A stretch of 64,000 nucleotides of DNA from an uncultured Gammaproteobacteria bacterium (GTDB lineage: Bacteria; Patescibacteriota; Microgenomatia; Levybacterales; GWA1-39-11): positions 47,551 to 111,550 of the forward strand of contig CAZVGS010000003.1 in assembly GCA_964627245.1 (NCBI GenBank), in the 5' to 3' direction. Position 1 is the first letter of the stretch, and each line of letters opens with the position of its first letter. This document shows, one piece after another, positions 19,612 to 62,484 of this stretch. The position numbers and the translations under genes are program-made. The notes under the pieces were generated by a model, which saw only the letters and a list, made by a program, of their open reading frames with translations, had not been told where the DNA came from and did not search any database.

Positions 19612-20595
<984 letters not shown>

Positions 20596-21625: not shown

Positions 21626-21627
21626 CT

Positions 21628-22758
21628 ATGAAAATATTTGTAATACCTGCAACATATAACGAGCGCGAAAATATAGGAAAATTCATAACCGTTCTGGAAG
21701 ATGAGGTTTTTCCCACAATAAAGGGTCACGATTTACATATCTTGGTAGCTGATGATTATTCACCTGATGGTACAGGTGAGGTTGTCAAGGATTTAATGAA
21801 AAAATATAAAAATCTCGGACTCAATCAAGGTGAGAAAAAAGGATTGGGAGCAGCTTATATCAGAACAATGGGGCATGCGATCGAAAAGTTGGGAGCAGAT
21901 GTCGTAGTGAGTATTGATGCAGATTTTCAATTTGATTCTCGCGAGCTGCCAAAATTTATTGAAAAAATAGAGCAGGGCAATGATATGGTTATCCAAACAC
22001 GCTACAGTGGTGGGGGATCGATCCCTTACAATTGGCCAATCCAGAGAAAAATCTTTTCAAAAACTGCAAATATGTTTGTCAGATCAGTTTTTATGAAATT
22101 TAACATACATGATTGGACGGGGGGATTTCGTGCAATCACAAAAGAAGTCTTTTTGAAAGAAAGACATGAGATGAGAGGATTCAACGGATATATATTTCAG
22201 ATTGCTTTTCTGCAAAAAGCGGTACGCGATGGATACAAGATTGCAGAAATTCCCGTACATTTTTCAGATAGAAAATTGGGGAATTCAAAGATCGCTCCCC
22301 TTCATTACATTGTGACAGTTTTAAAGTTTGTGATATCAACACGAGTTAAAGAGTTGGCATATGGACCGTTTGGAAAATTTATTATTGTCGGCGGGTTTGG
22401 ATTTATATTAAATGCGTTAATTTTGCGGATATTGGTGGATGGATTCGGATGGTTGCCATATGTAGCAAATCTTCTTGGAGCAGTATTTGCAATATTCTCT
22501 AATTTCAATTTTAATAATTTTTGGTCATTCAAGCATCATAAGGCTCCGACTTTCAAACATTATATTCTAAAAATGTTCCAGTTTTATTTAACTTCTGCCT
22601 TTGGAGTGATCGTGATACAAACTGGTACAATTTTTGTAGGCACACATTTTATTACAAAGCCTGATGACTATTTCCTATATTTCCTTCTGGGAACAGCATT
22701 CCTTCTCTTTTGGAATTTTTCAATTTACTCCCGCGTAATCTGGAAGAAAAAACATTAG
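21628..22758 (+). CDS. GT2 polyprenyl-phosphate sugar synthase (DPM1/ArnC/GtrB-like) fused to a C-terminal GtrA-like 4-TM domain
   Basis: N-terminal GT-A motifs (VIPATYNERENI, VADDYSPDGT, DAD). The C-terminal 120 aa form four TM helices typical of GtrA. Confidence 0.8.
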   Translation: MKIFVIPATYNERENIGKFITVLEDEVFPTIKGHDLHILVADDYSPDGTGEVVKDLMKKYKNLGLNQGEKKGLGAAYIRTMGHAIEKLGADVVVSIDADFQFDSRELPKFIEKIEQGNDMVIQTRYSGGGSIPYNWPIQRKIFSKTANMFVRSVFMKFNIHDWTGGFRAITKEVFLKERHEMRGFNGYIFQIAFLQKAVRDGYKIAEIPVHFSDRKLGNSKIAPLHYIVTVLKFVISTRVKELAYGPFGKFIIVGGFGFILNALILRILVDGFGWLPYVANLLGAVFAIFSNFNFNNFWSFKHHKAPTFKHYILKMFQFYLTSAFGVIVIQTGTIFVGTHFITKPDDYFLYFLLGTAFLLFWNFSIYSRVIWKKKH

Positions 22759-22765
22759 GCTGACT

Positions 22766-39998: not shown

Positions 39999-40358
39999 CT
40001 ATCTTATTTTTGATCCGGGTTCAACATCCTTCTCCGGTTGTATAAGAGTAATATTTTCTATATCATCACCGGTTGCTAATATCATTCCTTGGCTTTCTTC
40101 ACCCATCATTTTTCTAGGTTCCAAATTTACGATTGCAAGCAATTTTTTATCAATCAAATCTTGCGGGTCATAACTTTTCCCAAGACCTGCTAATATTTGT
40201 CTTATTTCACCACCAATATCTACAGTTAACTTGAGGAGTTTGTCGGATCCCTCTATCCTGGAGGCTTCAAGAACCTTGATAATTCTAATGTCCAATTTTG
40301 CGAAATCATCAATAGTTATCACTCCGAATATCTTACGTTCTGATAAAATTCCTGTCAA
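39999..40358 (-). CDS. tRNA-binding protein (Trbp111/CsaA, EMAP-like OB-fold)
   Basis: LDIRIIKVLEASRIEGSDKLLKLTVDIGGEIRQILAGL...AIVNLEPRKMMGEESQGMILA is a typical tRNA-binding domain. Confidence 0.8.
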   Translation of the reverse strand: MTGILSERKIFGVITIDDFAKLDIRIIKVLEASRIEGSDKLLKLTVDIGGEIRQILAGLGKSYDPQDLIDKKLLAIVNLEPRKMMGEESQGMILATGDDIENITLIQPEKDVEPGSKIR

Positions 40359-41776
40359 GGTTCTAAATACACAGAGTATTGGCCAATTTTTCTTTTTAAT
40401 CTGTATTTTTCTATTATAAATTTTTCTATTCCATCCTTCTGCTCGTTCTCATCTATAAGTGCAAGTTTTACACTTTTTCCCACAAGAGAATATTTTACAA
40501 GATCCTCATAATAAGCACTATTTGTCGATTCAATGCGGTCATACGGAACCGGATTTTTTCTATCGTAGATAAAATATATCATTGGGTAGAATGAATGGAC
40601 AAAAATATAATCATCAGGTTTTGTCTCAAGCGCTATCAATTTCTCAAGTTCATGGTGTTGTACTTTAAAATTTTCATCCACATAAAGTGAAATTTTACCG
40701 CCTAAATAAGAATTTTGTTCAACTAATGGAATAGCCGCTTTATAATAGTTTTTGAACAGCGCGGTATAAAAACCTGCAGATATTGATATAAAAATAATGA
40801 GATAAGATAAAAGTTTTATTGTAAAAGTAGGAAGTTTGTTGATAAAAATTACTATTAGGATTCCTGCAAGAGAAAGTATTGGATACAGCTCTTCATTGCT
40901 TGAAACCCGCGCCAGTGCAAAAAAGCAACTAAGTATAACCAGCGGAATAAATATGAGGTTATACTTTTTTCTATAAAGAAGTAAGGCAGTAGTTAATAAA
41001 GATGATATTGGAAGTATAAGAAGTGTAGGAGCGTTAAGATGTTCGTAGCTTGAAAGTGTAAGGCTATTCAAGTCATGCATGAATGAGTAGAACATGATGA
41101 AGCTATTCAGATATGAAGCAAAGGAATTAGTTAGAAGTAAATATATTGTGAAAATAATTATTCCCCAAATAAATCCGTAAATAAATTTAACAAGACTACT
41201 TCTGTTCGATTTTGAAATTAAATAGTGGATAGCAATAGGCAAAAGAATAATAATGAAGTTTTGAAACATCAAAAAGGCAATAAAAGACAGTATTCCAATC
41301 AGAAAATGTATTAGTGCATTTTTTTTACTTTCCGAAATGAGAATTAGATATATAACAAGCAGAATTATTGGAAGAGCCATTGTTGTGGGTGATGCAAAAT
41401 TCAAATGGGCTGGCCCCCAAGCTACAAATATTAATACAGATAGCAGACTATAAATAAGTCTTTTTGTAATGCTTTTGACTGTGTTGAAAATAATCCAAAT
41501 CGAGAGCACATTTAATATGAGAATAAGTATTCGTGCTGAAAAAACACTTTCTCCAAAAAGGAGAAAAGCAAAAGATAATATAAATATTCCTAGGGGGTTA
41601 TGAGGATAGTAATAATCTCTGTAGGGAATGCTGCCGTTTAAAAGTTTTGATGTACTATTCAATAAATAGCCTTCTTCACCAAATACTAAACCACGGAAAT
41701 GAAAGTAGCACAATATGGGCAGAATAATAAGGATTAGAATTCTGAAGTATGTTGGTCTCATCCTGCCATAATTCAT
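40355..41776 (-). CDS. GT-C fold membrane glycosyltransferase (PMT_2 / GT39-83-like)
   Basis: 473 aa with about 12 TM helices. An acidic motif in the first loop (GLVFGEEGYLLNS) and a periplasmic C-terminal domain. Confidence 0.6.
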   Translation of the reverse strand: MNYGRMRPTYFRILILIILPILCYFHFRGLVFGEEGYLLNSTSKLLNGSIPYRDYYYPHNPLGIFILSFAFLLFGESVFSARILILILNVLSIWIIFNTVKSITKRLIYSLLSVLIFVAWGPAHLNFASPTTMALPIILLVIYLILISESKKNALIHFLIGILSFIAFLMFQNFIIILLPIAIHYLISKSNRSSLVKFIYGFIWGIIIFTIYLLLTNSFASYLNSFIMFYSFMHDLNSLTLSSYEHLNAPTLLILPISSLLTTALLLYRKKYNLIFIPLVILSCFFALARVSSNEELYPILSLAGILIVIFINKLPTFTIKLLSYLIIFISISAGFYTALFKNYYKAAIPLVEQNSYLGGKISLYVDENFKVQHHELEKLIALETKPDDYIFVHSFYPMIYFIYDRKNPVPYDRIESTNSAYYEDLVKYSLVGKSVKLALIDENEQKDGIEKFIIEKYRLKRKIGQYSVYLEP

Positions 41777-47545: not shown

Positions 47546-47773
47546 ATGGATTTGCAGACGTCTTATTATGTGATGGGAATAATATTCATGAGTGTCATGT
47601 TTGTGCTCATGATAGCTCTTGTTGTTTTGGTTTTCTATATAAAAGGTAAGATAAATGATATGCAAAAAAATATTGAGGAAAAGATAGAGGTAGTCACATC
47701 ATTCGGGCAAATGGGAGGAAAAGCAGTCGAGAAATTTAAAGAATTTTTAGAAAATAAGAATAAGAAAAATTAA
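47546..47773 (+). CDS. hypothetical small membrane protein
   Basis: 75 aa with one TM helix (IIFMSVMFVLMIALVVLVFYI). Lies within the putative mobile-element remnant. Confidence 0.35.
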   Translation: MDLQTSYYVMGIIFMSVMFVLMIALVVLVFYIKGKINDMQKNIEEKIEVVTSFGQMGGKAVEKFKEFLENKNKKN

Positions 47774-48360
47774 TTATTTAGATTAAGCTTGCTGGAGTCT
47801 TTTTTTGCGAAGTATTCAAACTCGTCTATGTATCGTATATATCCATTTTGTAAAATCTTCTCTACTTCGTAGCCGGGATAAACTTGCGCAAAAATATCGG
47901 GCTGTAGTTTTAAAACGTATTCATAATCCCACTTATTATGACCTGGCCAAATTAAGCGTAGATGTTCAAAAAATCGTGGAGGTTCATATGGAAGCTTGAT
48001 TTTTCCACGTGCAATAAATTTATCGTTCTTGCCCAGCAAGTCTATATATTTTCGTTCTGTAAAATAAGGAACAATTCCAGACCACACTATTCCAACTGTA
48101 GCATCAGGTTTTGTTATTTTTTCAATTGATTTGGCCATTCTTAGTTGATTGGCATTTTCTGACCATGTAGCAGGAGCGGTATACCCCAATGTTTGAGGAA
48201 GCATGTTCTCAGACATTGTAGAAAAACTCAGAAAAGACAAAGTGATAATTATCATAAAAAGCATAGAACCCTTCTTTTGATGAGCCTTTTTAACGTTTGA
48301 CATCAAGTAGTTAAATATTTTGCCGGATGAAAGTACATAGAGAATAAAAAAGGCTGGCAT
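47770..48360 (-). CDS. hypothetical secreted protein
   Basis: 196 aa with a signal-like N-terminus. It occupies the position where a recombinase catalytic domain would be expected. Confidence 0.45.
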   Translation of the reverse strand: MPAFFILYVLSSGKIFNYLMSNVKKAHQKKGSMLFMIIITLSFLSFSTMSENMLPQTLGYTAPATWSENANQLRMAKSIEKITKPDATVGIVWSGIVPYFTERKYIDLLGKNDKFIARGKIKLPYEPPRFFEHLRLIWPGHNKWDYEYVLKLQPDIFAQVYPGYEVEKILQNGYIRYIDEFEYFAKKDSSKLNLNN

Positions 48361-48396: not shown

Positions 48397-49209
48397 ATGC
48401 CTCCAATAGGATACTACAATAGAGCTTTCAATGGAGTAAAAGACATTATTATTGATCCCGAAAGAGGTTTTATTGTAGCCGAAATGTTTGAGCGAGTAGC
48501 AAGAAATGGTGATAGCGGAAGAACACTTAAGAAGTGGCTTGATACTTGCTTAACAACCAGAGCAGGAAAGAAAGTGACACTTAGTCAGATTTATCTTATG
48601 CTCAAGAATCCCTTTTACTATGGTGAGTTTGAATATCCAATCGGAAGTGGTAACTGGTATAAAGGTGCTCATAAACCATTAGTTACTAAAGAACTATTTG
48701 ACCAGGTACAGAAACAGTTAATAGTCCCTAAAAAAGCAAAATGGGGGAGCAAATCGTTTACCTTTAAAGAGCTTTTCAAATGCGCAAGCTGTGGATCACT
48801 GGTCATCGGTGAAGATAGGTACAGAAAGCGAAAATATGGAGAACCACGCTATCACATTTACTATCACTGTACGAGGCAAAAAAAGTATGGTTGCCCGGAA
48901 CCATATCTCACAGAAGACAAGCTCGTAAAACAAATATTACGATACATAAACTTCATGTATATGGCGCATCCGCAGATATTTACTTTTAAAGAATTTGTGA
49001 AAGAAAGTATGGAGGCGTATAAGAAAATGCGAGATGAAATTTTATGGGCGCAAGACATTAACCCTGAAAACAAGCCTGTTCACTTTATGGATTACGCAAA
49101 CTACATTTTCAGAAATGGAACGATGCTGGAAAAACGAGAAGTAACGAATATATTAAATCGGCAACTCTATATCCACAACGAAACTGTTACCTCAGTACCG
49201 TTAATTTAG
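48397..49209 (+). pseudogene. large serine recombinase, N-terminally truncated (recombinase domain plus zinc-ribbon only; resolvase catalytic domain absent)
   Basis: Starts at PPIGYYNRAF (the PYGY-like motif that normally follows the catalytic domain). Recombinase-domain pattern LKKWLDT...LMLKNPFYYGEF, and zinc-ribbon cysteines CASCGS...YYHC...C. An in-frame stop lies immediately upstream (48370-48372). Confidence 0.6.
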
Positions 49210-49211
49210 AA

Positions 49212-49781
49212 CTATTTCGATCGCTTCTTTTGCAACTTTTTCCAAGAAACAGCAACAACTCCAAGAACTAAAAGGCCACCAGTTACTAACATAAAATTTA
49301 TATTAGGATTTGACGACTTTCTTTCACTACCTTCGGAGGATGATAAGTTCTGAGTATTCGCACTCGGAGAATATCCCGTACCTAGTACAGCTAAATCTTC
49401 TGAAGTAAGTGCATCGGGTACTTCTTTATTTCCCATACAGGCATTTGTTTTGAGATTACCTGAGTCCATTTTGAGAAAAAGGAGATATTTTTTATCTTCC
49501 TCAAACGAAAAATCAACAGATATTACTGCTCCTGGAGATTCTTGTCCGCTTACCTGAATCTGAGAAGGTCCATCGTGGCCTTTAAAGTACCGCTCGACAT
49601 TAACTATAGCTGATGTATCCGATACGCTAGATACACGGCCTAACACAATTATATCTGCCTGTTGTTTATATTCCGAAAACGATATAGCAGGAGCGCAAGA
49701 AGCCAATGCAACATGAGGGGTAAAGGATAAGAATGAAAAAAGTGCAATTATAAATGTAAATAGTAAATTTCTGATCAGCAT
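49212..49781 (-). CDS. secreted protein with TIMP/NTR-like N-terminal domain and C-terminal TM anchor
   Basis: Signal peptide ending ...ALA-SCAPAIS. The mature N-terminal Cys, then ADIIVLGRVSSV...YFKG, resembles a TIMP N-domain (C-x-C/P...AD.VI.a.v...FKG). C-terminal hydrophobic anchor plus KKLQKKRSK. Confidence 0.4.
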   Translation of the reverse strand: MLIRNLLFTFIIALFSFLSFTPHVALASCAPAISFSEYKQQADIIVLGRVSSVSDTSAIVNVERYFKGHDGPSQIQVSGQESPGAVISVDFSFEEDKKYLLFLKMDSGNLKTNACMGNKEVPDALTSEDLAVLGTGYSPSANTQNLSSSEGSERKSSNPNINFMLVTGGLLVLGVVAVSWKKLQKKRSK

Positions 49782-49979
49782 ATTTATAAGAGAATTATAG
49801 CAAAAATTAGCTGTTCGAATCCTAATTCTAGGGATAAGTAGGACATATGTGAACCTTAGCTTTATTATTGAGAACTTGAGGGTGTTTTGTCGGTCCGAAT
49901 GTTTCCCGTCTTGAAGGGGCTTTTAGCAAGCCCCCTCAAGCTAAATAGGGAATACGGTCACCTTAGGTGCCCGTCTCAG

Positions 49980-50050
49980 CTGGCGATCAGGGATTCGAAC
50001 CCCAATACCGTCCTCCAGAGGGACGTGTCCTACCATTAGACGAATCGCCA
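49980..50050 (-). tRNA. tRNA-Gln (anticodon CUG)
   Basis: The reverse complement folds as a cloverleaf: acceptor UGGCGAU/AUCGCCA, D-arm, anticodon stem CGUCC/GGACG with loop CUCUGGA (anticodon CUG), and T-loop UUCGAAU. CCA is not encoded. Confidence 0.75.
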
Positions 50051-50131
50051 AAATCAAAACATTTTAGTGTTTTGAGCTCTTTATTTTACTAAATTAAGCC
50101 CAAAATAGCCAATCCATGTTATACTCAAGCA

Positions 50132-50605
50132 ATGATTACTTGTGAATTTGAGGATGGTGGAAAAGGAAATTTACGTCATGTTGTGGTCCATTGCTTGTGC
50201 TTGAAGGGTAACAAAATACTTTTGGTCAAAAGAGCGCAAGGGATATTAGAAGCTGGGAAATGGGGATTTCCTGGAGGATTTTTGGACCAAGGGGAGGATG
50301 TTAAAAAGTGCGCTGTTAGAGAACTCATGGAAGAGACAGGATATGAAGGTACGGTCGACAAATTGTTTAGGATAAATTCAGGAGAGCGGAAAAATGACCA
50401 GGGTAGAAATAATGTAGCCTTTGAAATGTTGATGAAAATAGGAGACAAAACAGGTAAGCCGGATTGGGAGCAAACAGCGGTTGAATGGATAGACCTGGAG
50501 GATCTTGCTGAGGAAAAAATGGCATTTGATCACTACATGACAATTTTAGATCTGAAAAAATACCTGAAAGAAGGCGGAGAGCTTCCCGCACTCTACCCAC
50601 AATAA
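50132..50605 (+). CDS. NUDIX hydrolase
   Basis: Nudix box GGFLDQGEDVKKCAVRELMEETGY. Confidence 0.75.
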   Translation: MITCEFEDGGKGNLRHVVVHCLCLKGNKILLVKRAQGILEAGKWGFPGGFLDQGEDVKKCAVRELMEETGYEGTVDKLFRINSGERKNDQGRNNVAFEMLMKIGDKTGKPDWEQTAVEWIDLEDLAEEKMAFDHYMTILDLKKYLKEGGELPALYPQ

Positions 50606-50646
50606 AATCTGTTGACATATACCCTCCTAGGGTATACACTGGGATA

Positions 50647-50919
50647 ATGAAATCCCACTACGACGATGAAAAAGTTAAAGCTCAGAAGAGACTAAATATC
50701 ATAAAGGGCCAGTTAAACGGACTTTCAAAAATGATTGATGATGATATTTATTGTGTTGACATCTTAAATCAAAGCCTCGCTATCCAAAACTCTCTTAAGA
50801 GCCTTGACGCTGTTTTGTTTGAAAGGCACTTATCAACTCATGTAGGACATCAATTCCACAACGAGCCGGAAAAAGCGACTGAGGAGCTTGTTACCCTCTT
50901 CAAAAGGATTAACAAATAA
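50647..50919 (+). CDS. csoR: CsoR/RcnR family metal-sensing transcriptional repressor (copper-sensing)
   Basis: RLNIIKGQLNGLSKMIDDDIYCVDILNQSLAIQNSL...HLSTHV contains the conserved Cys/His metal ligands of the DUF156/CsoR family. Confidence 0.8.
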   Translation: MKSHYDDEKVKAQKRLNIIKGQLNGLSKMIDDDIYCVDILNQSLAIQNSLKSLDAVLFERHLSTHVGHQFHNEPEKATEELVTLFKRINK

Positions 50920-50921
50920 AT

Positions 50922-53234
50922 ATGATTAATAAAGCCTATCAAGTTAAGGGGATGCATTGTGCAAGCTGCAGCTCTATCATCACAAAAAAACTAAAAAAAC
51001 TTCAAAATATTGAAAGTTGCGATGTCAATTTTGCAACAGAAAAAGCTAACGTATCTTTCGACGAAAAGAAGGTTACGACTACGGACTTAAATAACCAGAT
51101 CGAAAAATTGGGCTATACGCTTGTCGAAGAGTCTCATGCTGGTCATGGCATGCCAACAAGTATAGGTGCACATAGTGAAAAAAGCAGCGCCGATCATTCA
51201 GAACACTTGGGTTTTAGTCTCTCAAAAGAGGCAAAAATAAAGGAACTTCAGCAATTTAAGGCTAAAATCAACTTAGTGCTGCCTATCTCTCTGCTTGTTT
51301 TTGCAACTATGATTTGGGATATCGCCTCAAAATTCTTCCCAGCAAGTATTCCTGCAATACCTATTCCAATGCAAATTTTAAACACCATATATTTCATATT
51401 AGCCTCTATTTTTATGTTTTGGATCGGACAGCCATATTTAAAGGCGCTGGTTAGGTTTGCAAAGTACAGGGTTGCAAATATGGATTTACTTGTCGGGATC
51501 GGTACATTTACAGCATACATTTACAGTAGTGTTTTGTTGCTTTTTCCGAGAGTTACATCATATTTCAATCTTCCAGAACATACTTACTTTGATGTGACTA
51601 TTGTTGTAATCGGATTTATAACTCTTGGGAAATATTTAGAAAGTCGCTCAAAACTTAAGACAGGTGAAGCAATTGAAAAATTGCTGGGTCTTCAAGCCAA
51701 AAGTGCCTTAGTTGTGAGAGATGGAAAAGAAATTGACATACCAATTGATGAAGTTGTTGTTGGCGATATTATTCGGGTCAAGCCGGGAGGCAAAATTCCA
51801 GTTGATGGGGAAATAATTGACGGCGCAACTTCCATAGACGAGTCCATGATCAATGGAGAGCCTGTGCCTGTTGATAAAAAAAAGGGAGATATTGTTATAG
51901 GTTCTACAATAAATAAACAAGGCAGTATTTTATTTAAGGCTAGTAAGGTTGGATCTGAGACGATGCTTTCTCAGATAGTGAGAATGGTTGAAGAGTCTCA
52001 AGGATCAAAAGCTGAAATCCAAAATTTGGCGGACAAGGCTTCATCAATATTTATCCCATCTGTACTCGTAATTGCAGTTTTATCTTTTGTTGCTTGGATG
52101 ACAGTTGGAGTATTTCTCTTGGGTTTTTCTCAGGCATTTTCTTTTGCATTATTATCTTTTGTTGGAGTGCTTGTTATCGCATGTCCTTGCGCTTTAGGAC
52201 TTGCGACGCCAACTGCAATAATTGTTGGGGTAGGCAAAGGAGCAGAGCATGGAATACTTATTAAAAATGCGCAAAGTCTTGAGAAGCTTTGCAAAGTAAA
52301 TATGGTCATTTTTGATAAAACAGGGACTCTGACGCACGGAAAGCCGGTAGTTACAGATGTTATTCCGGTTGGTTCATCGATATCTCATGAAAAAGTCTTA
52401 AATATTGCATCTAGCCTAGAAAGTCAATCATCGCATCCTATTGCCCATGCTGTGATTCGAGAGGCAGAAAAAACTAATATGGATAACTTGAAAGTGAGCC
52501 ATTTTGAGGAAAAAGAAGGAGTAGGGGTTGTTGGTGAAATTGAAGGAACAAGTTTTGCGGTGACAAGGCCTTCTTCAAAAAATAAAAACATATCTGATGT
52601 TATAAATCTTCAATCACAAGGCAAAACAGTAATTTTAGTTAAGAAGGAAGATGAAGTTGTAGGAATAATTGCCATCAGTGACACGGTGAAGCCTGATGTC
52701 AAAAAAGTAATTGAAAGGCTGCATCAAATGAATATTCAAATAGTAATGGTTACGGGAGACAACCAAAAAGCTGCAGAATATATTGCTCAACAATTGGAAA
52801 TTGATACCGTCAAAGCAGAAGTTATGCCGAAAGAGAAATCTAGCATAATTAAGGAATTTCAAAAGATGGGCAATAATGTTGCTATGGTTGGTGATGGTAT
52901 CAATGACGCTCCAGCCCTCACTCAAGCGGATGTAGGTATCGCAATGGCAACAGGAACTGATATTGCGATAGAAAGCGCTGACATAGCTCTGTTAAGCGGT
53001 GACCTATCCAAAATTCCTCAAGCAATCAATCTCTCGAGACTGACTATCCGCACAGTCAAGCAAAATCTTTTCTGGGCATTTATTTACAATATAATTGGAA
53101 TTCCGCTAGCAGCTGGAGTGTTTTATCCGATTTTCGGAATATTTCTCAATCCAATTTTTGCCGGATTTGCGATGGCAATGTCTTCTGTGTCTGTAGTTAG
53201 TAATTCATTATTATTAAAGAGAGTTAAAATTTAA
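50922..53234 (+). CDS. copA: copper-translocating P1B-type ATPase
   Basis: N-terminal HMA domain GMHCASCSS, TM CPC motif IACPCALGLATP, DKTGTLT phosphorylation site, and GDGINDAP. A His-rich stretch follows the HMA domain. Confidence 0.92.
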   Translation: MINKAYQVKGMHCASCSSIITKKLKKLQNIESCDVNFATEKANVSFDEKKVTTTDLNNQIEKLGYTLVEESHAGHGMPTSIGAHSEKSSADHSEHLGFSLSKEAKIKELQQFKAKINLVLPISLLVFATMIWDIASKFFPASIPAIPIPMQILNTIYFILASIFMFWIGQPYLKALVRFAKYRVANMDLLVGIGTFTAYIYSSVLLLFPRVTSYFNLPEHTYFDVTIVVIGFITLGKYLESRSKLKTGEAIEKLLGLQAKSALVVRDGKEIDIPIDEVVVGDIIRVKPGGKIPVDGEIIDGATSIDESMINGEPVPVDKKKGDIVIGSTINKQGSILFKASKVGSETMLSQIVRMVEESQGSKAEIQNLADKASSIFIPSVLVIAVLSFVAWMTVGVFLLGFSQAFSFALLSFVGVLVIACPCALGLATPTAIIVGVGKGAEHGILIKNAQSLEKLCKVNMVIFDKTGTLTHGKPVVTDVIPVGSSISHEKVLNIASSLESQSSHPIAHAVIREAEKTNMDNLKVSHFEEKEGVGVVGEIEGTSFAVTRPSSKNKNISDVINLQSQGKTVILVKKEDEVVGIIAISDTVKPDVKKVIERLHQMNIQIVMVTGDNQKAAEYIAQQLEIDTVKAEVMPKEKSSIIKEFQKMGNNVAMVGDGINDAPALTQADVGIAMATGTDIAIESADIALLSGDLSKIPQAINLSRLTIRTVKQNLFWAFIYNIIGIPLAAGVFYPIFGIFLNPIFAGFAMAMSSVSVVSNSLLLKRVKI

Positions 53235-53236
53235 AT

Positions 53237-54253
53237 ATGGAATTGTGGTTAATTTTTATGACAGGTCTGACGGTTGGCGGACTTACATGTCTTGCAGTGC
53301 AAGGTGGTCTTTTGGCTTCGGTTATTGCAGCCCGGGAAAAAGAAGAAGTTAAGAAAGGTATCAATAAGAAGAACGCTTTTCTCCCAACAGTAGTTTTTTT
53401 GTCGACTAAGCTCATCGCCTACACATTACTCGGATTTTTACTTGGTGCTTTTGGTGGTGTTATTAATATTGGTGGGAATGTTCAAATTTTTATGCAGCTT
53501 TTTGCAGGTATTTATATGGTTTTGGTAGCTCTCAATCTTCTTAATATACATCCGATATTTCGCTACGTTATCATACAGCCTCCGCGATTTTTGCTTAGAA
53601 AAGTTAAAAATCAATCCCGTGGTAAAGCAATTTTTTCTCCCGCGCTTCTTGGGGGAATGACTGTTTTTATACCTTGTGGAACCACTCTTGCCATGGAAGC
53701 ATTGGCGATTAGCAGTGCAGATCCTTGGATGGGTGCAGCTATTATGGGTGTATTTGTCTTAGGTACGATGCCTCTTTTCTTTGGTCTTGGCGTTGTTACT
53801 TCCATCCTGGGGGATACTTTTAGAACAAAGTTCTTAAAAGTGGCGGCCATTGCCCTAATATATATAGGAGTAAGTTCGATTAACGGAGCATTTATCGCAT
53901 TAGGCTTTCCGCTAAATTCAAAAGCTGTAATGAATGTTTTTGCTTCGGATGGTAATAGAGGAGTAAATCAAAAAAATGTTTCTAGTGTGTCGCAGATGCA
54001 TGAAATTTATATTTTTGCCAACGGATACTCACCGAATTATATTCGCGTTAACAAGGGGCTACCTGTATCAATAACTCTTATAGGAAAAGGTGCATACAGT
54101 TGTGCTTCTGCATTTAGAATTCCCTCACTTGGAATTAGTAAAAATATGCAGCCTAATGAAAAATATACCTTTACATTTACTCCAAAAAGGGCTGAGCGAA
54201 TAACTTTTACATGCTCTATGGGAATGTATAGTGGAGTAATCGATGTAATATGA
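53237..54253 (+). CDS. membrane permease (DsbD_2 / TauE-like 6-8 TM) fused to C-terminal cupredoxin-like domain; putative copper handling
   Basis: Multi-TM N-terminal region with a TC pair (GGLTCLAVQGG). The C-terminal 95 aa, YSPNYIRVNKGLPVSITLIGKG...FTCSMGMYSGVIDV, follow the cupredoxin_1 pattern with C...M..M ligands. Embedded in the cop operon. Confidence 0.5.
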   Translation: MELWLIFMTGLTVGGLTCLAVQGGLLASVIAAREKEEVKKGINKKNAFLPTVVFLSTKLIAYTLLGFLLGAFGGVINIGGNVQIFMQLFAGIYMVLVALNLLNIHPIFRYVIIQPPRFLLRKVKNQSRGKAIFSPALLGGMTVFIPCGTTLAMEALAISSADPWMGAAIMGVFVLGTMPLFFGLGVVTSILGDTFRTKFLKVAAIALIYIGVSSINGAFIALGFPLNSKAVMNVFASDGNRGVNQKNVSSVSQMHEIYIFANGYSPNYIRVNKGLPVSITLIGKGAYSCASAFRIPSLGISKNMQPNEKYTFTFTPKRAERITFTCSMGMYSGVIDVI

Positions 54254-54477
54254 TTTTAAAGTTAAAAATAACAGGAATGCACTGTGTGTCTTGTGCAATG
54301 AATATAGATTTTGATTTAGAAGATGTTGAGGGGGTAATTTCTTCAAAAACAAGTTATGCAAAAGGGATTACGGAGGTTGAATTCGATAACAAAAAGTTGA
54401 CAATTGACGTAATTAAAAAAGCGATAGAAGAGACAGGATATAGAGGCGAAATTTTTACCGAGGGGGGTGAATTATGA
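54250..54477 (+). CDS. copZ: heavy-metal-associated (HMA) copper chaperone
   Basis: 75 aa with the GMHCVSCAMNI motif (MxCxxC) in a ferredoxin-like HMA fold. Confidence 0.8.
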   Translation: MILKLKITGMHCVSCAMNIDFDLEDVEGVISSKTSYAKGITEVEFDNKKLTIDVIKKAIEETGYRGEIFTEGGEL

Positions 54478-55088
54478 AAGACAACAATATATTTATATAC
54501 ATAATAGTTTCTTTTTTAGCCGGAGGACTGTTGGTTTGGGGAGCAATTAATTTTGGCTCAAATTCGTACGGAAGGAGCATGATGCAATTTCAGAATTCGA
54601 ATAGTTTGAATAGGGTGCGTAATATAGATGCACATTTTATAGAAGAAATGATACCGCATCACGAGGATGCAATAAAGATGTCAAAAATAGCGCTTGAAAA
54701 AGCTTCTCATGAAGAGCTGAGAAATCTTGCTCGGAGCATTATCAAATCTCAAGGAGACGAAATTGATCAGATGACGAGCTGGTATAAAGAATGGTTTGGA
54801 ACGTCCGTGCCTGAGGAGTCTGATGATGACTTGGATAGTATGATGGGGGGAAGAATGGGTATGATGGATGAAGATACTGATTACTCCTCGCTTGTTAACT
54901 CAGAGGAATTTGACAAAAGATTTATTGAGGAGATGATTCCCCATCACCAAATGGCTGTAATGATGGCAAATATGCTTAAAAACAGTACAGAAAGAAATGA
55001 AATGAAGAAATTGGCCGATTCCATAATTACATCACAATCTCAAGAGATTGACCAAATGAGAGAATGGTACAAGAGTTGGGAATATTGA
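54474..55088 (+). CDS. DUF305 domain protein (two repeats), copper-resistance associated
   Basis: Two copies of FIEEMIPHH(E/Q)xA(I/V)xM, typical of DUF305. N-terminal TM helix. Confidence 0.8.
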   Translation: MKDNNIFIYIIVSFLAGGLLVWGAINFGSNSYGRSMMQFQNSNSLNRVRNIDAHFIEEMIPHHEDAIKMSKIALEKASHEELRNLARSIIKSQGDEIDQMTSWYKEWFGTSVPEESDDDLDSMMGGRMGMMDEDTDYSSLVNSEEFDKRFIEEMIPHHQMAVMMANMLKNSTERNEMKKLADSIITSQSQEIDQMREWYKSWEY

Positions 55089-57694: not shown

Positions 57695-59056
57695 TCAAGC
57701 CGATTTGCTGGGCGCCTCGCTTTTAAGTATTTTATCGATCAGGATATAAGCATTTTCTTTCTCTTCACCTTCAAGATATTTTTCGCAAAGTTTATTTACA
57801 TTTATTTCTCCGCTTTGAGCAATATCTTTATACAAATGAGCGCTTCTTCTCAATTCCCTTTCCCCCGTTACAGGATCATTGTTGATCAGTCCAAATTCTT
57901 TTGTATAACCTACAATCCATTCCAAATTGTCGATAGTAGACCAATGTATATATTGTTCTACCTTCACTCCTTCCTGCATTGCTTTCCAAACAGACACCAG
58001 GTGGGTGAGGATGTAAAATGATCTGTGTTTATCTTCTTTGTCTGCAATCCCGTTTTCGGTAATATATATGGGAAGATCATATGTTTTTTTAAGGTACCTT
58101 AATACTTCAAGAAAGAACTCGGGTACAATTGGCCAGCCGTAATCAGATTTGTATGAATTAGGCTTTCTTGTTTCACCGAAAAGCAAAGTTTTTGCGGTTA
58201 ATTTGTCTGAATTTCTAGCTCTGAATTTATATTTTCTTATATCAAGGTTTAGATAATATCCGGTGTAGTAATTGCATCCAATAAAATCCATAGTTTTTTT
58301 CGTTGCTTCAATGTAGCTCCCGACACTTATGTGGTTAACTAAATTTGAGTACCACTTGTCCCATAAATGATTTTTATGTTCAGGCAAATTCCACCTGAAT
58401 GCAAAAGTCATTCCCACTTTGGACATTGGATTAATTGATTTTATCTTTCTAAAAGATCTTTTATGTGCTTCCAGCATATTCCATCTGGCAATTGATGCTG
58501 AAATTAGATTGTTCTTTTGAGGCGGAAAATACTTTGAAAAATAAGCAAGTATAACAAGAATGTTAGGTTCATTCATTGTTATCCAATAATTCACATCAGG
58601 AAATTCCAAAGCCGCAAATTTTACAAAATGCTCAAAATGTCCAATCGTTCTTTTATTCTCCCAGCTTCCTTCTCTTGCGACCCATTGAGGAAGTACATAA
58701 TGATTTAGTGTAACCATGGGAATCATCCCCGCATCTACGATTGTTTTTATAATTTCTTTGTAACGGGCAACGGCTTCCAAATTTATATTTCCCTTTTGAG
58801 GTTCAATCCTTCCCCATGAAATACCTATTCTCTGTACTTTAAGTCCAAGTCCAGCCATCGTATTGATGTCGTGTTCTGCCTTCCCCTTTTTCCACCATTC
58901 CGGACCCTTCTCGTGGAGTTTTATCATCTCAGGGTACTGGTTCATATAAACGTCCCAGTCAGTATTTCTTTCCCCATCCTCTCCTTCCACTTGGTGGGCA
59001 GCAGTAGCACTGCCAAATAAGAAATCTTTTGGGAATTTTAATATTTTATTGTCCAT
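57695..59056 (-). CDS. glycoside hydrolase family 1 (beta-glucosidase / beta-galactosidase)
   Basis: Acid/base motif TMNEPN and nucleophile motif YITENG, with the N-terminal signature FLFGSATAAHQVEG. Confidence 0.9.
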   Translation of the reverse strand: MDNKILKFPKDFLFGSATAAHQVEGEDGERNTDWDVYMNQYPEMIKLHEKGPEWWKKGKAEHDINTMAGLGLKVQRIGISWGRIEPQKGNINLEAVARYKEIIKTIVDAGMIPMVTLNHYVLPQWVAREGSWENKRTIGHFEHFVKFAALEFPDVNYWITMNEPNILVILAYFSKYFPPQKNNLISASIARWNMLEAHKRSFRKIKSINPMSKVGMTFAFRWNLPEHKNHLWDKWYSNLVNHISVGSYIEATKKTMDFIGCNYYTGYYLNLDIRKYKFRARNSDKLTAKTLLFGETRKPNSYKSDYGWPIVPEFFLEVLRYLKKTYDLPIYITENGIADKEDKHRSFYILTHLVSVWKAMQEGVKVEQYIHWSTIDNLEWIVGYTKEFGLINNDPVTGERELRRSAHLYKDIAQSGEINVNKLCEKYLEGEEKENAYILIDKILKSEAPSKSA

Positions 59057-59096
59057 ACTCCATTTTGTGCATTTAACCGCAAAAAAGTCAAAATTA

Positions 59097-60824
59097 TTAA
59101 TTGCAGTTTTTGTTAAATAGCGTAATGTATTTATTATAGTCAGGCTCCTTAAATTTTAGTTTGAGTACCGCAACGTGTCTTAATGCTGTACAATTTTCCG
59201 GCTCAAATTCGAGGTACTTAAGATCCATATCAAGCATGGGGCGATACCATTCAAGAATTCTGAAAAGATTTGATAAATCTCCAATTTTATCTTTACTGTA
59301 TTCATTCAGGTTTTTAATATTGACATTTTTCTCCGTTATTTCGTTTTCTTGAATAGCCAGTTTATTTTGTGGGTTGTTATTAAGAAAAATTATTATTCTG
59401 CTGTCAAGATAAATTATCTTCCAATTTGGATCTTTACTAAGAGAAGTTAAAACGGGATTTGTCATTTGGGTTTGATTTTTATGTTCATAAAAAATGGCAT
59501 TGATCTTATATTTATTGCTAAGCCTAACGAATGACGGATATGAACTTTCCATGGGGTAATAGACTTCCTTAAAAAATTTAGAAGGATACTGCTCGGGGTT
59601 ACCGTCAACAAATATTCTTTCCTTAGGATAAAGTCTATATTCTAAGTAATTACCTATATTATAGTTATTAAAAATCGGCCCACTGATCTTATTTTTAATC
59701 AAAAAATTTACAGCACTATTTGCTTCATCAATAACTCCAAATCCCACTCCGTGCAATTTGAAATTCAAATAGACACCGGGTATGGAAATTAGAATAACAA
59801 CAAGAACAATAGTCTCCTTAAGATGCTTATTTTTACTAATTACCGAACTCTTAAGTGCAATTATTACAATTCTAGTCATTACAATGAAGGTTCCCAAGGC
59901 AAAGAGTGGAAAATTTCTAACGGCAAAAAAGGCAAGGAGAGTAAAATATGCGCCAACAAGAATATCTAGTCTAGATATTTTCTTATAAAAAGTAAAAACA
60001 CCAACCCAAAGTACAAGTACCCCGGCGATAAAGTAAGCAAATGTTATATCGGCATAACCTTTGTGGATAGCTTGAAAAAAATTCAAGTTTTCAATAACTT
60101 CGTAGCCGTAATTTGTCAGAACGTGAAATGGATAAATTAATCCTTTAATATGGTTGGGATTTATTAGGCTTCCGAGAATGCACAAGGCAAATACTAGCGA
60201 TAGAGTTTTGGTTTGCTTTTTCCCTTTGTTAACAAAGGAATCTATGAAAAATATTCCAATAAGTCCCAGCCCTACAATAAAAAAAATGTGAAAATTAATC
60301 CACGATATCATTAAGATAGGAAGAAGATAAATCAGCTTCGTCGGTTTGTCCTTGAATCTGTACAAGACGAAAATGTAAATCGATAAAAGCAAATAGCTGA
60401 AAAGTTCAGGCTTAATTTCTGTTCTGTCCATTATCATTTGCAGATAGAAAATTCCGATAACCGATGCGATAGTAAGGTGCTTCTTAAGATACACAAAAAG
60501 CATGAGAAAGCTTGTGACTGCCAGAGTAACCGATAGTACTATCAAACCGTTGAATCCAAAAATACTCTTAATTAGATAATAAACAACTTCCGATAACCAC
60601 TGATTGTTCACAAAAACATACTCAGGATGTGTGAATGATATTAAATTTGTTTGGGGTACAGAAAGCGTTTTTGTTGTTATTTCGCCGAGCAGTAAGTGAT
60701 GTCCAAGATCAACATTTGTACCCTGAAGCGGAATAGGGTGGAAAAAGTATAAAAGAACTAATAAAAAAAAGGAAAGCGTTAGGGCGATAGATATTTTACT
60801 CACCTTTTTTATATATTTATTCAT
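59097..60824 (-). CDS. large polytopic membrane protein, putative GT-C-like glycosyltransferase (YfhO/ArnT-like)
   Basis: 575 aa with about 13 TM helices followed by a roughly 180-aa extracytoplasmic C-terminal domain. No sharp motif. Genomic context with a TMTC-like protein and GH1. Confidence 0.45.
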   Translation of the reverse strand: MNKYIKKVSKISIALTLSFFLLVLLYFFHPIPLQGTNVDLGHHLLLGEITTKTLSVPQTNLISFTHPEYVFVNNQWLSEVVYYLIKSIFGFNGLIVLSVTLAVTSFLMLFVYLKKHLTIASVIGIFYLQMIMDRTEIKPELFSYLLLSIYIFVLYRFKDKPTKLIYLLPILMISWINFHIFFIVGLGLIGIFFIDSFVNKGKKQTKTLSLVFALCILGSLINPNHIKGLIYPFHVLTNYGYEVIENLNFFQAIHKGYADITFAYFIAGVLVLWVGVFTFYKKISRLDILVGAYFTLLAFFAVRNFPLFALGTFIVMTRIVIIALKSSVISKNKHLKETIVLVVILISIPGVYLNFKLHGVGFGVIDEANSAVNFLIKNKISGPIFNNYNIGNYLEYRLYPKERIFVDGNPEQYPSKFFKEVYYPMESSYPSFVRLSNKYKINAIFYEHKNQTQMTNPVLTSLSKDPNWKIIYLDSRIIIFLNNNPQNKLAIQENEITEKNVNIKNLNEYSKDKIGDLSNLFRILEWYRPMLDMDLKYLEFEPENCTALRHVAVLKLKFKEPDYNKYITLFNKNCN

Positions 60825-62484
60825 TAATTTTAAGCTTTTTGCCTGTTCTTAATGTAGTTACAACATAATAATTTTTCTCACTTGGATTTATGCGATACGC
60901 GTTTTCGGAAGCGGTAAGTGCAGATGGGAGGTCATTGTTTTTGTAACTCACAAGAGACAGCATGAACCAGAAGTTTTCATTATCCGGAAATTTATCAACT
61001 GCTTTAACAAGATTTATTTGTGCATCTTTATAGTTATCGTTCTCAATTTGAAGATTTATTAAATTATTAAATGCAAGGAAATTCGGACCAATGGCAATCG
61101 ACTCCTCAAACCAATTGTAGGCTTCATCTTTATTTCCGGTTTTATAATAATAGACTCCAAGAGTGTTTGTGTTATTGGGAGTCTTAAAGTACTCAACGGA
61201 TTTTAACAAATGAGTGTAGGCTTTATCCATTTTATTCATTTGCATATATTCATAACCAAGAGAGTTTTCAAGCAAATAGCTTCTTGTAACATTAACGTCG
61301 TGCCCATATAGTGATAGTGGACTTTTCCAGTCGCCAATTCTTATGTAAGTCCTTAAGATCAGAAAAGGTATAGTTAATATGAGAAAAATCATTACAGTCA
61401 GTTTTATCCGCTTACTTTTTACTAGATCTACAAAAAATCCGGTTAGTCCCAGAAGTCCAATAATTGGGAAATAGAACCATCTATCGGCTACCGTCATTTC
61501 CAGCGGGATTATCTGTGAATGCATAATAAATCCCCCGAAAAACCACAGCAGGAAAAATAAATAGATATTAAATTTTTTAGTTTTTCTATGTTTTAGAGAA
61601 AGAATAGTAATAAGACCAAGAATTGCCAGGAATGTTAAGTAAATTTCATTCGAAAAGCTGGAGTGCTCATTTAGCCATGTTTGACCCACAGCAAGGTTGA
61701 GCGGAAAGATAAAAGTTGCTATGTAGTAGTAAAAAATAAAGGGAATATTTTCTATTCTTTGAATTAATGTGAGATTGGCAAAAACGGAATGGGGAGTTTC
61801 TCCAATTCCGACTCCAGCAACTACAAATCGTAGAAAGGCATAGATAATAATGACAACAATTATTACCGGTAGAAATTTGTATTTGTTCTTTTCTTTTAGC
61901 AACAGTGGGAATGAGGTAATTAACCATGCAAAAAGAATTCCTGATTCTTTTGAAAGAAGAGATAAGAAAAGCAACCCCCCTATGAGATAGATATTATATT
62001 TTGGGAAAGGTTTGTATAGCGCGATTGATAAAGCAATCAATCCAAAAAAGACAAACATGACATCCTGCAGGTCCGAGACATATGCAACTGCTTCAATATT
62101 TATTGGATGAATTAAAAATATCACCGAAAGAATTGCTGATATTTTTTTTGAAAAGAATTTCTTCAAGATAAATAGAACCAGGATGGAGTTTGTGATATGA
62201 AATAGAAGTTGGGGCAGGTGATAATAGAGTGGAGTTTGACCAAAGAGTTTGTAAATCAACGAAAAAAAGACGAGCATGAGAGGTCTATAGAAATTGCCGG
62301 TTACCAAAGAACTCCCGCCCAGGTCGGAGCTTGATCCCTGGAATAGCCTGAGGATTTCAAAATTTTGAATGTAGGGATGATTAATATAGCCTATGTCATC
62401 CCCCACAAATCCGTTAAAAAATATCCTGTGATAAACAGCAAGTCCAAGTAGAGAAATTAGCGCAATAACGTAGCGGGGCTTCAC
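60817..62484 (-). CDS. TMTC/DUF1736-like GT-C O-mannosyltransferase-type membrane protein with C-terminal TPR repeats
   Basis: N-terminal signature GFVGDDIGYINHPYIQN (the F-x-x-DD...I-x-N of bacterial TMTC-like proteins). Eleven or more TM helices, and C-terminal TPR-like repeats (AYTHLLKSVEYFK..., AYNWFEESIAIGPN...). Confidence 0.65.
   Translation of the reverse strand: MKPRYVIALISLLGLAVYHRIFFNGFVGDDIGYINHPYIQNFEILRLFQGSSSDLGGSSLVTGNFYRPLMLVFFSLIYKLFGQTPLYYHLPQLLFHITNSILVLFILKKFFSKKISAILSVIFLIHPINIEAVAYVSDLQDVMFVFFGLIALSIALYKPFPKYNIYLIGGLLFLSLLSKESGILFAWLITSFPLLLKEKNKYKFLPVIIVVIIIYAFLRFVVAGVGIGETPHSVFANLTLIQRIENIPFIFYYYIATFIFPLNLAVGQTWLNEHSSFSNEIYLTFLAILGLITILSLKHRKTKKFNIYLFFLLWFFGGFIMHSQIIPLEMTVADRWFYFPIIGLLGLTGFFVDLVKSKRIKLTVMIFLILTIPFLILRTYIRIGDWKSPLSLYGHDVNVTRSYLLENSLGYEYMQMNKMDKAYTHLLKSVEYFKTPNNTNTLGVYYYKTGNKDEAYNWFEESIAIGPNFLAFNNLINLQIENDNYKDAQINLVKAVDKFPDNENFWFMLSLVSYKNNDLPSALTASENAYRINPSEKNYYVVTTLRTGKKLKINE

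Follow-up and report, generated by a model that had tools for sequence, protein, structure and literature searches.

A TMTC-like glycosyltransferase gene overlapping a gene for a predicted GT-C-fold protein of a large unannotated family at a candidate-phyla-radiation locus

Genes at the locus

The names of homologues point to a Patescibacteria (Microgenomates/Levybacteria-like) source for the DNA. At this candidate-phyla-radiation (CPR) locus, the ORF listing of the window (the whole 64-kb stretch of DNA that was analysed) contained three minus-strand ORFs, as described in the initial annotation. Gene A (60817..62484, 555 aa, GTG start) encoded a TMTC-like GT-C glycosyltransferase with a C-terminal TPR domain, gene B (59097..60824, 575 aa) encoded a putative glycosyltransferase of the GT-C fold from a large family without annotation, and the third gene (57695..59056, 453 aa) encoded a cytoplasmic GH1 beta-glycosidase of the non-phospho type. 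The stop codon of A lay within the first codons of B, the two genes sharing the 8 nt ATGAATAA (60817..60824, minus strand), which was read directly from the sequence and agreed with the overlap first reported for the 555-aa and 575-aa genes; A and B are translationally coupled through it. Between B and the GH1 gene there was a 40-nt spacer (59057..59096, minus strand) with GGAG before the ATG. A search of this spacer for a terminator-like hairpin found none, and a weakly supported promoter-like site was present in it. Judged by their positions, A, B and the GH1 gene may be co-transcribed.

The window had been described as carrying four GT-C genes, and this number was correct: besides A and B, PMT_2 matches were located at 22766-24352 (48.8 bits) and 40355-41776 (30.9 bits). 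A GT2::GtrA fusion gene of the polyprenyl-phosphate sugar synthase type (21628..22758, plus strand; Glycos_transf_2 78.8 bits, GtrA_DPMS_TM 47.5 bits) lay directly upstream of the PMT_2 gene at 22766-24352, at a distance of 37 kb from A and B, and the window carried a cluster of nucleotide-sugar, GT2::GtrA and GT-C genes. The GT-C density had been called very high for 64 kb; it is typical of the lineage and normal in these genomes, because a related MAG locus (L030) packs five A-type genes and one B-type gene into 12 kb.

The 453-aa protein matched PF00232 (278 bits, E 1e-82) and carried the GH1 catalytic motifs NEP at 162 (acid/base) and TENG at 333 (nucleophile), with DNLEW at 376, which upheld its first assignment as a GH1 beta-glycosidase. 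Sequence searches of the PDB returned GH1 structures, down to E 1e-65. It matched GH1 beta-glucosidases and beta-galactosidases (Pyrococcus horikoshii 1vff and archaeal BgaS) over its full length with both catalytic glutamates in common, and scored under every NCBIfam equivalog cut-off. No signal peptide, TM segment or hydrophobic segment was found in the protein, so it is neither an extracytoplasmic partner of A and B nor a substrate of their glycosylation, and the latter role was ruled out on this ground. A metagenome scan with the GH1 protein returned a single locus (29% identical), which was useless for synteny.

Protein A and the TMTC family

Animal TMTC1-4 are protein O-mannosyltransferases of CAZy family GT105. 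Comparison of the A-family profile with TMTC1-4 by hhalign gave a probability of 99.6% and E 6.7e-25 over 381 columns, an alignment that took in the whole membrane region; the TMTC side consisted of 9 animal TMTC N-regions. An HMM built from these animal TMTCs scored A at 50.5 bits and all 34 A relatives at 31-88 bits, and had no match in the other three GT-Cs of the window or in the B family. On these profile comparisons, A is assigned as a genuine TMTC homologue in its membrane region, as had been proposed for the 555-aa protein.

The segment GFVGDDIGYINHPY covered residues 25-38 of A. The FVGDD codons within it (residues 26-30; 62395..62409, minus strand) encoded the loop-1 catalytic DD motif and aligned with FVxDD of TMTC M1. 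The motif quoted in the initial annotation had been taken as the hallmark of DUF1736, but it proved to be this DD motif, in another region of the protein: DUF1736 is the TM7-TM8 loop of TMTC, and the loop-1 DD motif is M1 (PMC7801869). F26, D29 and D30 were invariant in 35 family members, as were P68, H126, P127, E131, K179 and W336, while E180 and R335 were nearly invariant. The motifs aligned between the A family and TMTC were FVxDD, YRP, HPIxxEAV, KE(T/S) and (D/E)RxxY.

Pfam DUF1736 (PF08409), which had been expected in A, had no match there at E<=1 and was absent from the 25 Pfam families with matches in most of the 35 A relatives scanned. The HMMER alignment of the TMTC HMM to A skipped the TM7-TM8 (DUF1736) loop, and the DW motif was degenerate in A, with Trp alone conserved (GQTW, W270). 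For the TMTC motifs M2, M3, M4, M6 and M7 as defined in PMC7801869 (Table 4), YRP of M2 SHKSYRP was kept in A and SHKS was missing; the Asp of M3 RxD was kept and the Arg lost; M4 KE(T/Q)xxT was kept as KES/KET; M6 PxxP had no alignment; and M7 ERxxY had the counterpart DRWFY. A is thus unlike TMTC1-4 in lacking Pfam DUF1736, PxxP, the DW Asp, the M3 Arg and the SHKS part of M2. It also differs in having five TPR hairpins only and in its bacterial host, where the donor would be a bacterial polyprenyl phosphate and cadherin acceptors are absent.

In the AF2 model of A (pLDDT 88), five TPR hairpins came after a predicted 11-TM core (residues 1-385), an order of domains like that of TMTC1-4, which have an 11-TM core and then a lumenal/external TPR domain. 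The TPR domain of A (residues 389-546; 60847..61320, minus strand) consisted of ten helices forming the five hairpins. It is predicted to lie on the non-cytoplasmic side, from the odd TM count and the positively charged N-terminus. In the Pfam scan, TPR_2, TPR_1 and TPR_8 passed their thresholds (residues 408-540, TPR_2 45.2 bits); PMT_2 covered residues 68-214 at 23.5 bits, below the gathering threshold of 26.1, and matched 23 of the 35 A-family members; and MIR and PMT_4TMC had no match in A. The C-terminal TPR repeats noted at first were therefore present, and of the two further Pfam families named at first as checks, TPR was found over threshold in A and PMT_2 was not.

TPR proteins swamped the match list when the A model was compared with the PDB by Foldseek. 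The sole GT-C match in this comparison was ArnT 5f15 (E 6e-4, rank 42), and PDB sequence searches with A, both as a single sequence and as a profile, returned TPR matches only. ArnT (GT83) and the PMT/GT39 enzymes of the Pfam PMT_2 superfamily resemble A in the GT-C fold and the PMT_2 region; A differs from them in having a TPR domain in place of the MIR domain or the ArnT-type periplasmic domain.

Pseudomonas aeruginosa TfpW, a pilin D-arabinofuranosyl transferase, spans the membrane with 11 TM helices and has its N-terminus in the cytoplasm; a DDx motif in its periplasmic loop 1 is essential, its C-terminal TPR domain is periplasmic, and ArnT is its best structural template (bioRxiv 10.1101/2020.04.19.049825). 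A has the same predicted architecture, a likeness drawn from the published description of TfpW. However, tfpW adjoins pilA, while A had no adjacent pilin gene, either in the window or in the CPR loci. Full-length prokaryotic TMTC-like proteins have been noted earlier and were not studied (PMC7801869, Discussion).

Protein B and its family

The AF2 model of B had a pLDDT of 94 and a pTM of 0.92. All 13 Foldseek matches of this model in the PDB up to E 1.1e-3 were GT-C enzymes, and no transporter was among them. The best match was DPY19 7zli (E 3e-6, TM 0.54), and the further matches were STT3 (6ezn/6s7o), PglB, AglB, AftA and ArnT (including 5ogl and 3wak), with TM-scores of only about 0.5 to the GT-C structures. 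From the model, B is assigned as a GT-C-fold glycosyltransferase and not a transporter. This agreed with the GT-C assignment first given to the 575-aa protein, and PglB and AglB, named at first for structural comparison, were among the matches; the transporter named at the same time as the contrary outcome did not appear.

The protein had also been described as polytopic with a large extracytoplasmic domain, and residues 359-575 are indeed predicted to lie outside, from the AF2 model and topology reasoning. The AF2 secondary structure placed an alpha/beta domain in the first part of this region (residues 359-500; 59325..59750, minus strand), in which a GPIFNNYxIGxYL...VFVDG segment was conserved; G382, G391 and Y393 were invariant, and N386 and D407 were nearly invariant. 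This domain had a weak structural match to the C-terminal globular domain of AglB (3vu0). A short TPR-like helical tail followed (residues 505-573; 59106..59312, minus strand). For the tail, the family profile matched the designed TPR protein 7obi (E 1.6e-12; Foldseek rmsd 2.7), and full TPR arrays stood at this position in some B-family members.

In the first external loop, D39 was invariant in all 40 sequences compared, among them non-CPR members such as those of Chloroflexota, within the motif DLGxHL (DPDLWWHL in distant members). Conserved polar residues in the predicted external loops were D39 and H43 (EL1), R134 and E140 (EL2), W175, N177 and H179 (EL3), N222, P223 and E245 (EL4), and R303 (EL5).

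Pfam, NCBIfam and PDB sequence searches gave no match to the membrane part or the alpha/beta part of B. The Pfam scan of 40 B-family members returned nothing except sporadic TPR matches, and a search of the full PDB sequence set with the B-family profile at E<=10 matched TPR proteins only. The family comprised 38,744 clusters at 50% identity (E<=1e-3), or 16,740 at E<=1e-30. Pfam had no model for it, and the sources searched gave it no functional name, listing its members always as "hypothetical". B resembles DPY19 and STT3/PglB/AglB in having a membrane core and an external globular domain; unlike them, it had no sequence similarity to these enzymes even with the family profile at E<=10. The WWDxG motif of STT3 (GT66) was not found in B, the corresponding region being FNNYNIGNYL, and the likeness to DPY19 (GT98) was structural only, with no Pfam Dpy19 match in 40 members.

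Comparison of the family profiles by hhalign found no link between the B family and the A family beyond the TPR-like tail, so that A and B are not paralogous. The B family likewise had no relationship to TMTC outside this tail, and the sequence of B was unrelated to the PMT_2-type GT-C enzymes of the window.

A-B pairing and its interpretation

Related loci were collected by a profile scan of genome contigs with an alignment of 13 closer B sequences as query. Of the 44 related loci, 9 had adjacent A and B genes, and three orientations occurred. B preceded A with an overlap of 4 nt in L001, L042 and L044; A was convergent to B and 6 nt from the B end in L004, L006 and L016; and A and B were tandem neighbours in L030, L033 and L036. 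The flanks carried 14 A-type genes, ten of them immediately beside B, and the A/B identities dropped together across these loci (54/47%, 42/35% and 31-34/26-35%). A GT2 gene was nearby in L036, in the order A, B, GT2. On the Sulfuricystis plasmid pSTJ1, GT2, methyltransferase and GtrA genes directly preceded two B-family paralogues. No GH1 gene occurred within about 7 kb of a B homologue in any of the 44 loci, the closest relatives included, and the initial grouping of the GH1 gene with the GT-C pair was not sustained. The GH1 protein is an ordinary cytoplasmic beta-glycosidase outside the A/B system, which shares the strand and possibly the transcript.

It is very likely that A and B belong to the enzyme class assigned to them. 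As a whole, the reading that they are paired glycosyltransferases that use polyprenyl-phosphate sugars outside the cytoplasm, probably with proteins as acceptors, and with the GH1 enzyme outside the system, is considered reasonably probable; its protein-acceptor part stands at about an even chance. Under this reading, two unrelated GT-C-fold integral-membrane glycosyltransferases with translationally coupled genes would each draw a sugar from a polyprenyl-phosphate donor at the outer face of the cytoplasmic membrane, and transfer would proceed through the Asp-bearing first external loop (D29/D30 in A, D39 in B). A would be a bacterial TMTC/TfpW-type enzyme whose external five-repeat TPR arm recruits the protein acceptor. 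B would have a DPY19/oligosaccharyltransferase-like layout of membrane core, external alpha/beta domain and, in this clade, short TPR-like tail. The two would most likely share their secreted or surface protein targets or work within one glycan pathway; one may initiate and the other extend, or they may serve separate acceptor classes. The donor would probably come from a GT2/GtrA-type polyprenyl-phosphate sugar synthase, for which the GT2::GtrA protein encoded at 21628-22758 is a candidate. GtrA/GtrB/GtrC three-component systems (PMC11127046) resemble the B family in that B-family genes follow GT2 and GtrA on pSTJ1, and resemble the window in that the GT2::GtrA fusion adjoins another GT-C gene; A and B differ from them in lying 37 kb from the fusion, and B in having no Pfam match.

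A less probable but serious alternative is that A, B or both modify a non-protein acceptor (a cell-wall polysaccharide, a teichoic-acid-like polymer, a lipoglycan or a lipid) in the mode of GtrC, ArnT, YfhO or Emb/Aft, with the TPR parts serving only for complex assembly. The occurrence of ArnT and AftA among the structural matches fits this, as do the window's cluster of nucleotide-sugar, GT2::GtrA and GT-C genes and the position of the B-family genes on pSTJ1 after GT2, methyltransferase and GtrA, an order known from published three-component glycan-modifying systems (PMC11127046). However, the TMTCs, which are the closest homologues of A, act on proteins (PMC7801869), and so does TfpW, the closest characterised bacterial analogue of the A architecture (bioRxiv 10.1101/2020.04.19.049825). 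The best structural matches of B, DPY19 and STT3/PglB/AglB, are also protein glycosyltransferases, A and B both have TPR-type modules predicted to face outward, and in 3 of the 5 loci outside the CPR a distant B relative adjoins Flp pilin genes. A non-enzymatic B, that is, a transporter, flippase or structural membrane protein of GT-C architecture, would accord with the TM-scores of about 0.5 and with the fact that neither a characterised enzyme nor a Pfam model matched B in sequence, but it is the most improbable of the alternatives, given that all 13 Foldseek matches up to E 1.1e-3 were GT-C glycosyltransferases, that loop 1 has an invariant Asp and conserved Arg, Glu and His stand in the external loops, the site of GT-C active centres, and that the operon context includes GT2 and GtrA.

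Membership of the GH1 enzyme in the functional unit, whether trimming or recycling the A/B glycoside or being glycosylated itself, is improbable. The gene shares the strand and follows a 40-nt spacer without a terminator-like site, and a precedent exists in the Caldicellulosiruptor GT39 enzyme, whose gene lies inside a glucan-degradation locus and which glycosylates cellulases (PMC6151902). Against this, no GH1 gene accompanied B across the 44 loci, the promoter-like site in the spacer counts weakly, and the GH1 protein, with neither signal peptide nor TM helix, is cytoplasmic, while the GT-C active sites face out. The GH1 part of the original finding has no special significance.

For the B family, a possible link to surface filaments was suggested by several loci. 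In 3 of the 5 non-CPR loci examined (L046-L048), the B homologue stood directly upstream of Flp pilin genes and the genes tadV-rcpC-secretin-tadZ-tadA; the B homologue preceded a VirB2-like pilin ORF in one CPR locus (L002); and the B-family genes of pSTJ1 lay beside TraG/TraH/TraF. Motif scans for type IV, Flp and VirB2-like pilins around the B genes of the window and the CPR loci returned only L002, a dubious match in L027 and one match in the window, and the pilin association is therefore not extended to the CPR subfamily on present evidence. The single match in the window was a low-complexity repeat and was rejected as a false positive. It remains speculative, and on balance doubtful, that the B family represents unrecognised cross-phylum protein glycosyltransferases for surface filaments, possibly including a missing enzyme of Flp/Tad-type pilin glycosylation, which in CPR bacteria would be paired with a TMTC/TfpW-like enzyme as a two-enzyme system for surface-protein O-glycosylation.

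GT-C enzymes make or decorate most extracytoplasmic glycoconjugates, and new GT-C families, such as TMTC, TMEM260 and DPY19, have repeatedly proved to be missing enzymes. As a TMTC homologue by sequence, A gives the animal TMTC O-mannosyltransferases a clean bacterial counterpart that is open to test. Comparison with it marks DD, YRP, HPxxxE, KE(T/S) and (D/E)RxxY as ancient TMTC motifs, and the DUF1736 loop with its DW motif may be lineage-specific. The B family is very large and lacks both a Pfam model and, in the sources searched, a functional name; its model, of high confidence, puts it in the GT-C fold near DPY19 and the oligosaccharyltransferases, and its members in cultured bacteria (Sulfuricystis, Azospira and Granulicella) make genetics possible. 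The paired enzymes suggest that CPR bacteria, whose episymbiotic life is mediated by their surfaces, invest heavily in glycosylating those surfaces.

Gene layout and the GH1 beta-glycosidase

The ORF listing showed three minus-strand ORFs exactly as claimed in the initial annotation: A (62484..60817, 555 aa, GTG start), B (60824..59097, 575 aa) and a GH1 beta-glycosidase gene (59056..57695, 453 aa). The 8-nt overlap of A and B described there was also present, as ATGAATAA. The spacer between B and GH1 was 40 nt, with GGAG ahead of the GH1 ATG and no terminator-like hairpin. A riboflavin kinase gene at 62544 lay upstream of A and divergent from it, and a Lon gene lay downstream of GH1 and convergent with it. 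The G+C content of the window was about 36%. The first 121 codons of A occupied 62122-62484; the public NCBI call for A (P0001, 435 aa) began at residue 121 and so missed TM1-3 together with the catalytic FVGDD loop. Homologues and the Logan call P0500 (555 aa) backed the longer, GTG-initiated ORF.

GH1 was a standard family-1 enzyme (PF00232, E 1e-82; NEP 162, TENG 333, DNLEW 376) that scored under every NCBIfam equivalog cut-off; we take the Glu of DNLEW to indicate the non-phospho type. No hydrophobic segment was found in GH1, which is predicted to be cytoplasmic and would therefore be neither substrate nor extracytoplasmic partner of A and B; both roles were rejected. GH1 was present in the flanks of 0 of 44 loci with a B homologue. 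Thus the glycosidase identity stood, while the proposed partnership with A and B did not, and the shared direction of the genes is best read as incidental.

Elsewhere in the window, a recombinase fragment (Recombinase and Zn-ribbon, 48397-49209) adjoined the sole tRNA gene, tRNA-Gln (49979-50050). A copper-handling cluster followed, with a Cu-type P-ATPase carrying an HMA domain (50922-53234), a DsbD-like/cupredoxin fusion (53237-54253) and a DUF305 protein (54474-55088). The region 48397-55088 may mark the border of an integrated element. Two minus-strand ORFs, 36426-37493 (355 aa) and 47770-48360 (196 aa), had no Pfam match at E<=1e-3.

Protein A and its relation to TMTC

Pfam analysis of A revealed TPR repeats at residues 408-540 and PMT_2 at 68-214, the latter with 23.5 bits, below the cut-off of 26.1; DUF1736 had no match even at E<=1. 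Among 35 A-family sequences, PMT_2 was matched by 23, and DUF1736 was absent from the 25 families that most of these sequences matched. Judged by library HMMs only, the results went halfway towards refuting the initial annotation.

The reference was a curated alignment of the membrane regions of the animal O-mannosyltransferases TMTC1-4, published as supplementary material to Eisenhaber et al. 2021 (PMC7801869). Profile-profile comparison with the A family (residues 1-400) aligned 381 columns (Prob 99.6%, E 6.7e-25). A TMTC HMM made from nine sequences gave A 50.5 bits and 34 of the 34 other A-family members 31-88 bits; it matched neither the other GT-C glycosyltransferases of the window (22766, 40355 and B) nor any B-family member. 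Because of these matches and misses, A is judged from sequence to be specifically TMTC-like, not merely a generic GT-C. The TMTC likeness thus held by homology, but without DUF1736.

The alignment paired FVxDD of TMTC motif M1 with FVGDD of A (26-30), YRP of M2 with 66-68, HPIxxEAV with 126-133, KE(T/S) of M4 with 179-181, and (D/E)RxxY of M7 with DRWFY (334-338); most of these residues were invariant or nearly so across the A family. A did not keep SHKS of M2, the M3 Arg, PxxP or the Asp of the DW motif, and the DUF1736 loop (TM7-TM8) was left wholly unaligned by HMMER. What was first quoted as the DUF1736 hallmark is in fact the catalytic motif of loop 1.

The AF2 model of A (pLDDT 88) showed a membrane core in which we count 11 TM helices; the ten helices after it make up five TPR hairpins. 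This TPR arm should face outward, as in TMTC, because the N-terminus is Lys/Arg-rich and the TM count is odd. By architecture, the closest characterised bacterial analogue of A is TfpW, the pilin arabinofuranosyltransferase of P. aeruginosa, an ArnT-like protein in fold with 11 TM helices and a periplasmic TPR domain, whose loop 1 contains an essential DDx motif (bioRxiv 10.1101/2020.04.19.049825). The presence of full-length TMTC-like proteins, with both transferase and TPR parts, in many uncharacterised prokaryotes was pointed out earlier by Eisenhaber et al. (PMC7801869).

Protein B and its linkage to A

B had no Pfam, NCBIfam or PDB sequence match, save a TPR-like signal confined to its 70 C-terminal residues. 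Its AF2 model, from a 40-sequence alignment, was very confident (pLDDT 94, pTM 0.92). In the Foldseek search against the PDB, every match up to E 1.1e-3 was a GT-C glycosyltransferase, including C. elegans DPY19 (7zli; E 3e-6, TM 0.54) and further yeast and human STT3, AftA, PglB, AglB and ArnT; the external domain was weakly similar to the C-terminal globular domain of AglB. These results bore out B as a second GT-C, and the alternative that it is a transporter was therefore rejected. Conserved polar residues sat in predicted external loops, the site of GT-C active sites: D39 and H43 (EL1), R134 and E140 (EL2), W175, N177 and H179 (EL3), N222, P223 and E245 (EL4), and R303 (EL5). B lacked a WWDxG motif, and at profile level it resembled neither A nor TMTC. 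B is not assignable to STT3, DPY19, PMT or TMTC.

Of the 44 loci, 36 came out of a genome scan and the other 8 were looked up exactly. An A-type gene directly adjoined B in nine of the 44. Three of these had B ahead of A, overlapping by 4 nt (L001, L042, L044), three had A convergent with B and 6 nt from its end (L004, L006, L016), and three had the genes as tandem neighbours (L030, L033, L036); the window itself has A ahead of B. Ten of the 14 A-type genes in the flanks touched B, and the identities of paired A and B dropped together with distance, consistent with co-inheritance. This linkage is limited in that most B genes stood alone amid housekeeping genes, A-type genes were multi-copy and several of the loci were closely related to one another. 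Functional coupling of A and B is likely from this gene order, and a protein glycosylation system is plausible. In L030 (3-12171, Levybacteria MAG CAVRKE010000002.1), a single strand carried five TMTC-like genes of type A plus one of type B in 12 kb, which shows strong paralogue expansion of these glycosyltransferases in this lineage.

Putative donor supply and the wider B family

A contiguous plus-strand cluster of the window (15272-24352) contained five SDR nucleotide-sugar epimerase/dehydratase genes, including RmlD-like and GDP-mannose 4,6-dehydratase (450 bits) genes, a UDP-glucose dehydrogenase gene (17354), a GT2::GtrA fusion (21628-22758) and a PMT_2 GT-C (22766-24352). Together these genes resemble a full three-component system for modification with lipid-linked sugars that brings its own supply of sugar nucleotides, and the organism is thus equipped to produce such lipid-linked donors. 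For A and B, the obvious donor supplier would be the GT2::GtrA gene. A fourth GT-C lay at 40355-41776.

A and B homologues came nearly all from Patescibacteria (named Levy-, Roizman-, Woese- and Daviesbacteria), and on this basis the host is taken to be a member of the candidate phyla radiation (CPR). Many contigs of L003-L031 were titled 'uncultured Gammaproteobacteria bacterium' yet were CPR-like in gene content and best-homologue identity; the titles look like placeholder or erroneous taxonomy.

In three of the five non-CPR loci (L046, 5001-11527; L047, 5001-11455; L048, 5001-11572), a distant B gene lay directly upstream of a Tad/Flp pilus locus on the same strand. It was followed by two Flp pilin genes (51-56 aa, Ser/Thr-rich C-termini) and then by tadV (prepilin peptidase), tadE, rcpC, secretin, tadZ (TadZ-like) and tadA. 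These B proteins shared 24-29% identity with B of the window and 42-47% with each other. Large polytopic proteins without Pfam match lay just upstream in L047 and L048, with GT87 genes in L047. The arrangement was absent from L040 and L049, and no type IV or Flp pilin adjoined B in the CPR loci, where the only case was one VirB2-like ORF beside B in L002. Gene neighbourhood thus suggests a link between the B family and surface filaments. In L002, a 99-aa ORF (7816-8115) after B and a 364-aa Cys-rich secreted protein (600-1694) before B shared a terminal two-TM VirB2/TrbC-like 'T4SS_pilin' module; a 1244-aa protein without Pfam match followed.

The B-family profile search of 1.84 billion cluster representatives gave 38,744 clusters at E<=1e-3, of which 16,740 reached E<=1e-30. 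A second search, seeded with distant members, revealed forms of about 485 aa without the tail from Chloroflexota, Anaerolineae, Terriglobales and Pyrinomonadaceae; each bore the name 'hypothetical protein' and lacked any Pfam domain. Plasmid-borne members were present in cultured Sulfuricystis, Azospira and Granulicella. On plasmid pSTJ1 of Sulfuricystis multivorans (L051, NZ_AP018719.1, 6612-11950), the operon-like order was GT2, class I SAM methyltransferase, GtrA, a 47-aa ORF and two tandem B paralogues (504 and 503 aa, both annotated hypothetical), adjoining the conjugal transfer genes TraG, TraH and TraF. This order, the classic three-component layout for transferring lipid-linked monosaccharides (PMC11127046), lends independent contextual support to a polyprenyl-phosphate-sugar donor. 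The most useful product of the analysis is the B family itself, a large GT-C family without model or name that has experimentally tractable members.
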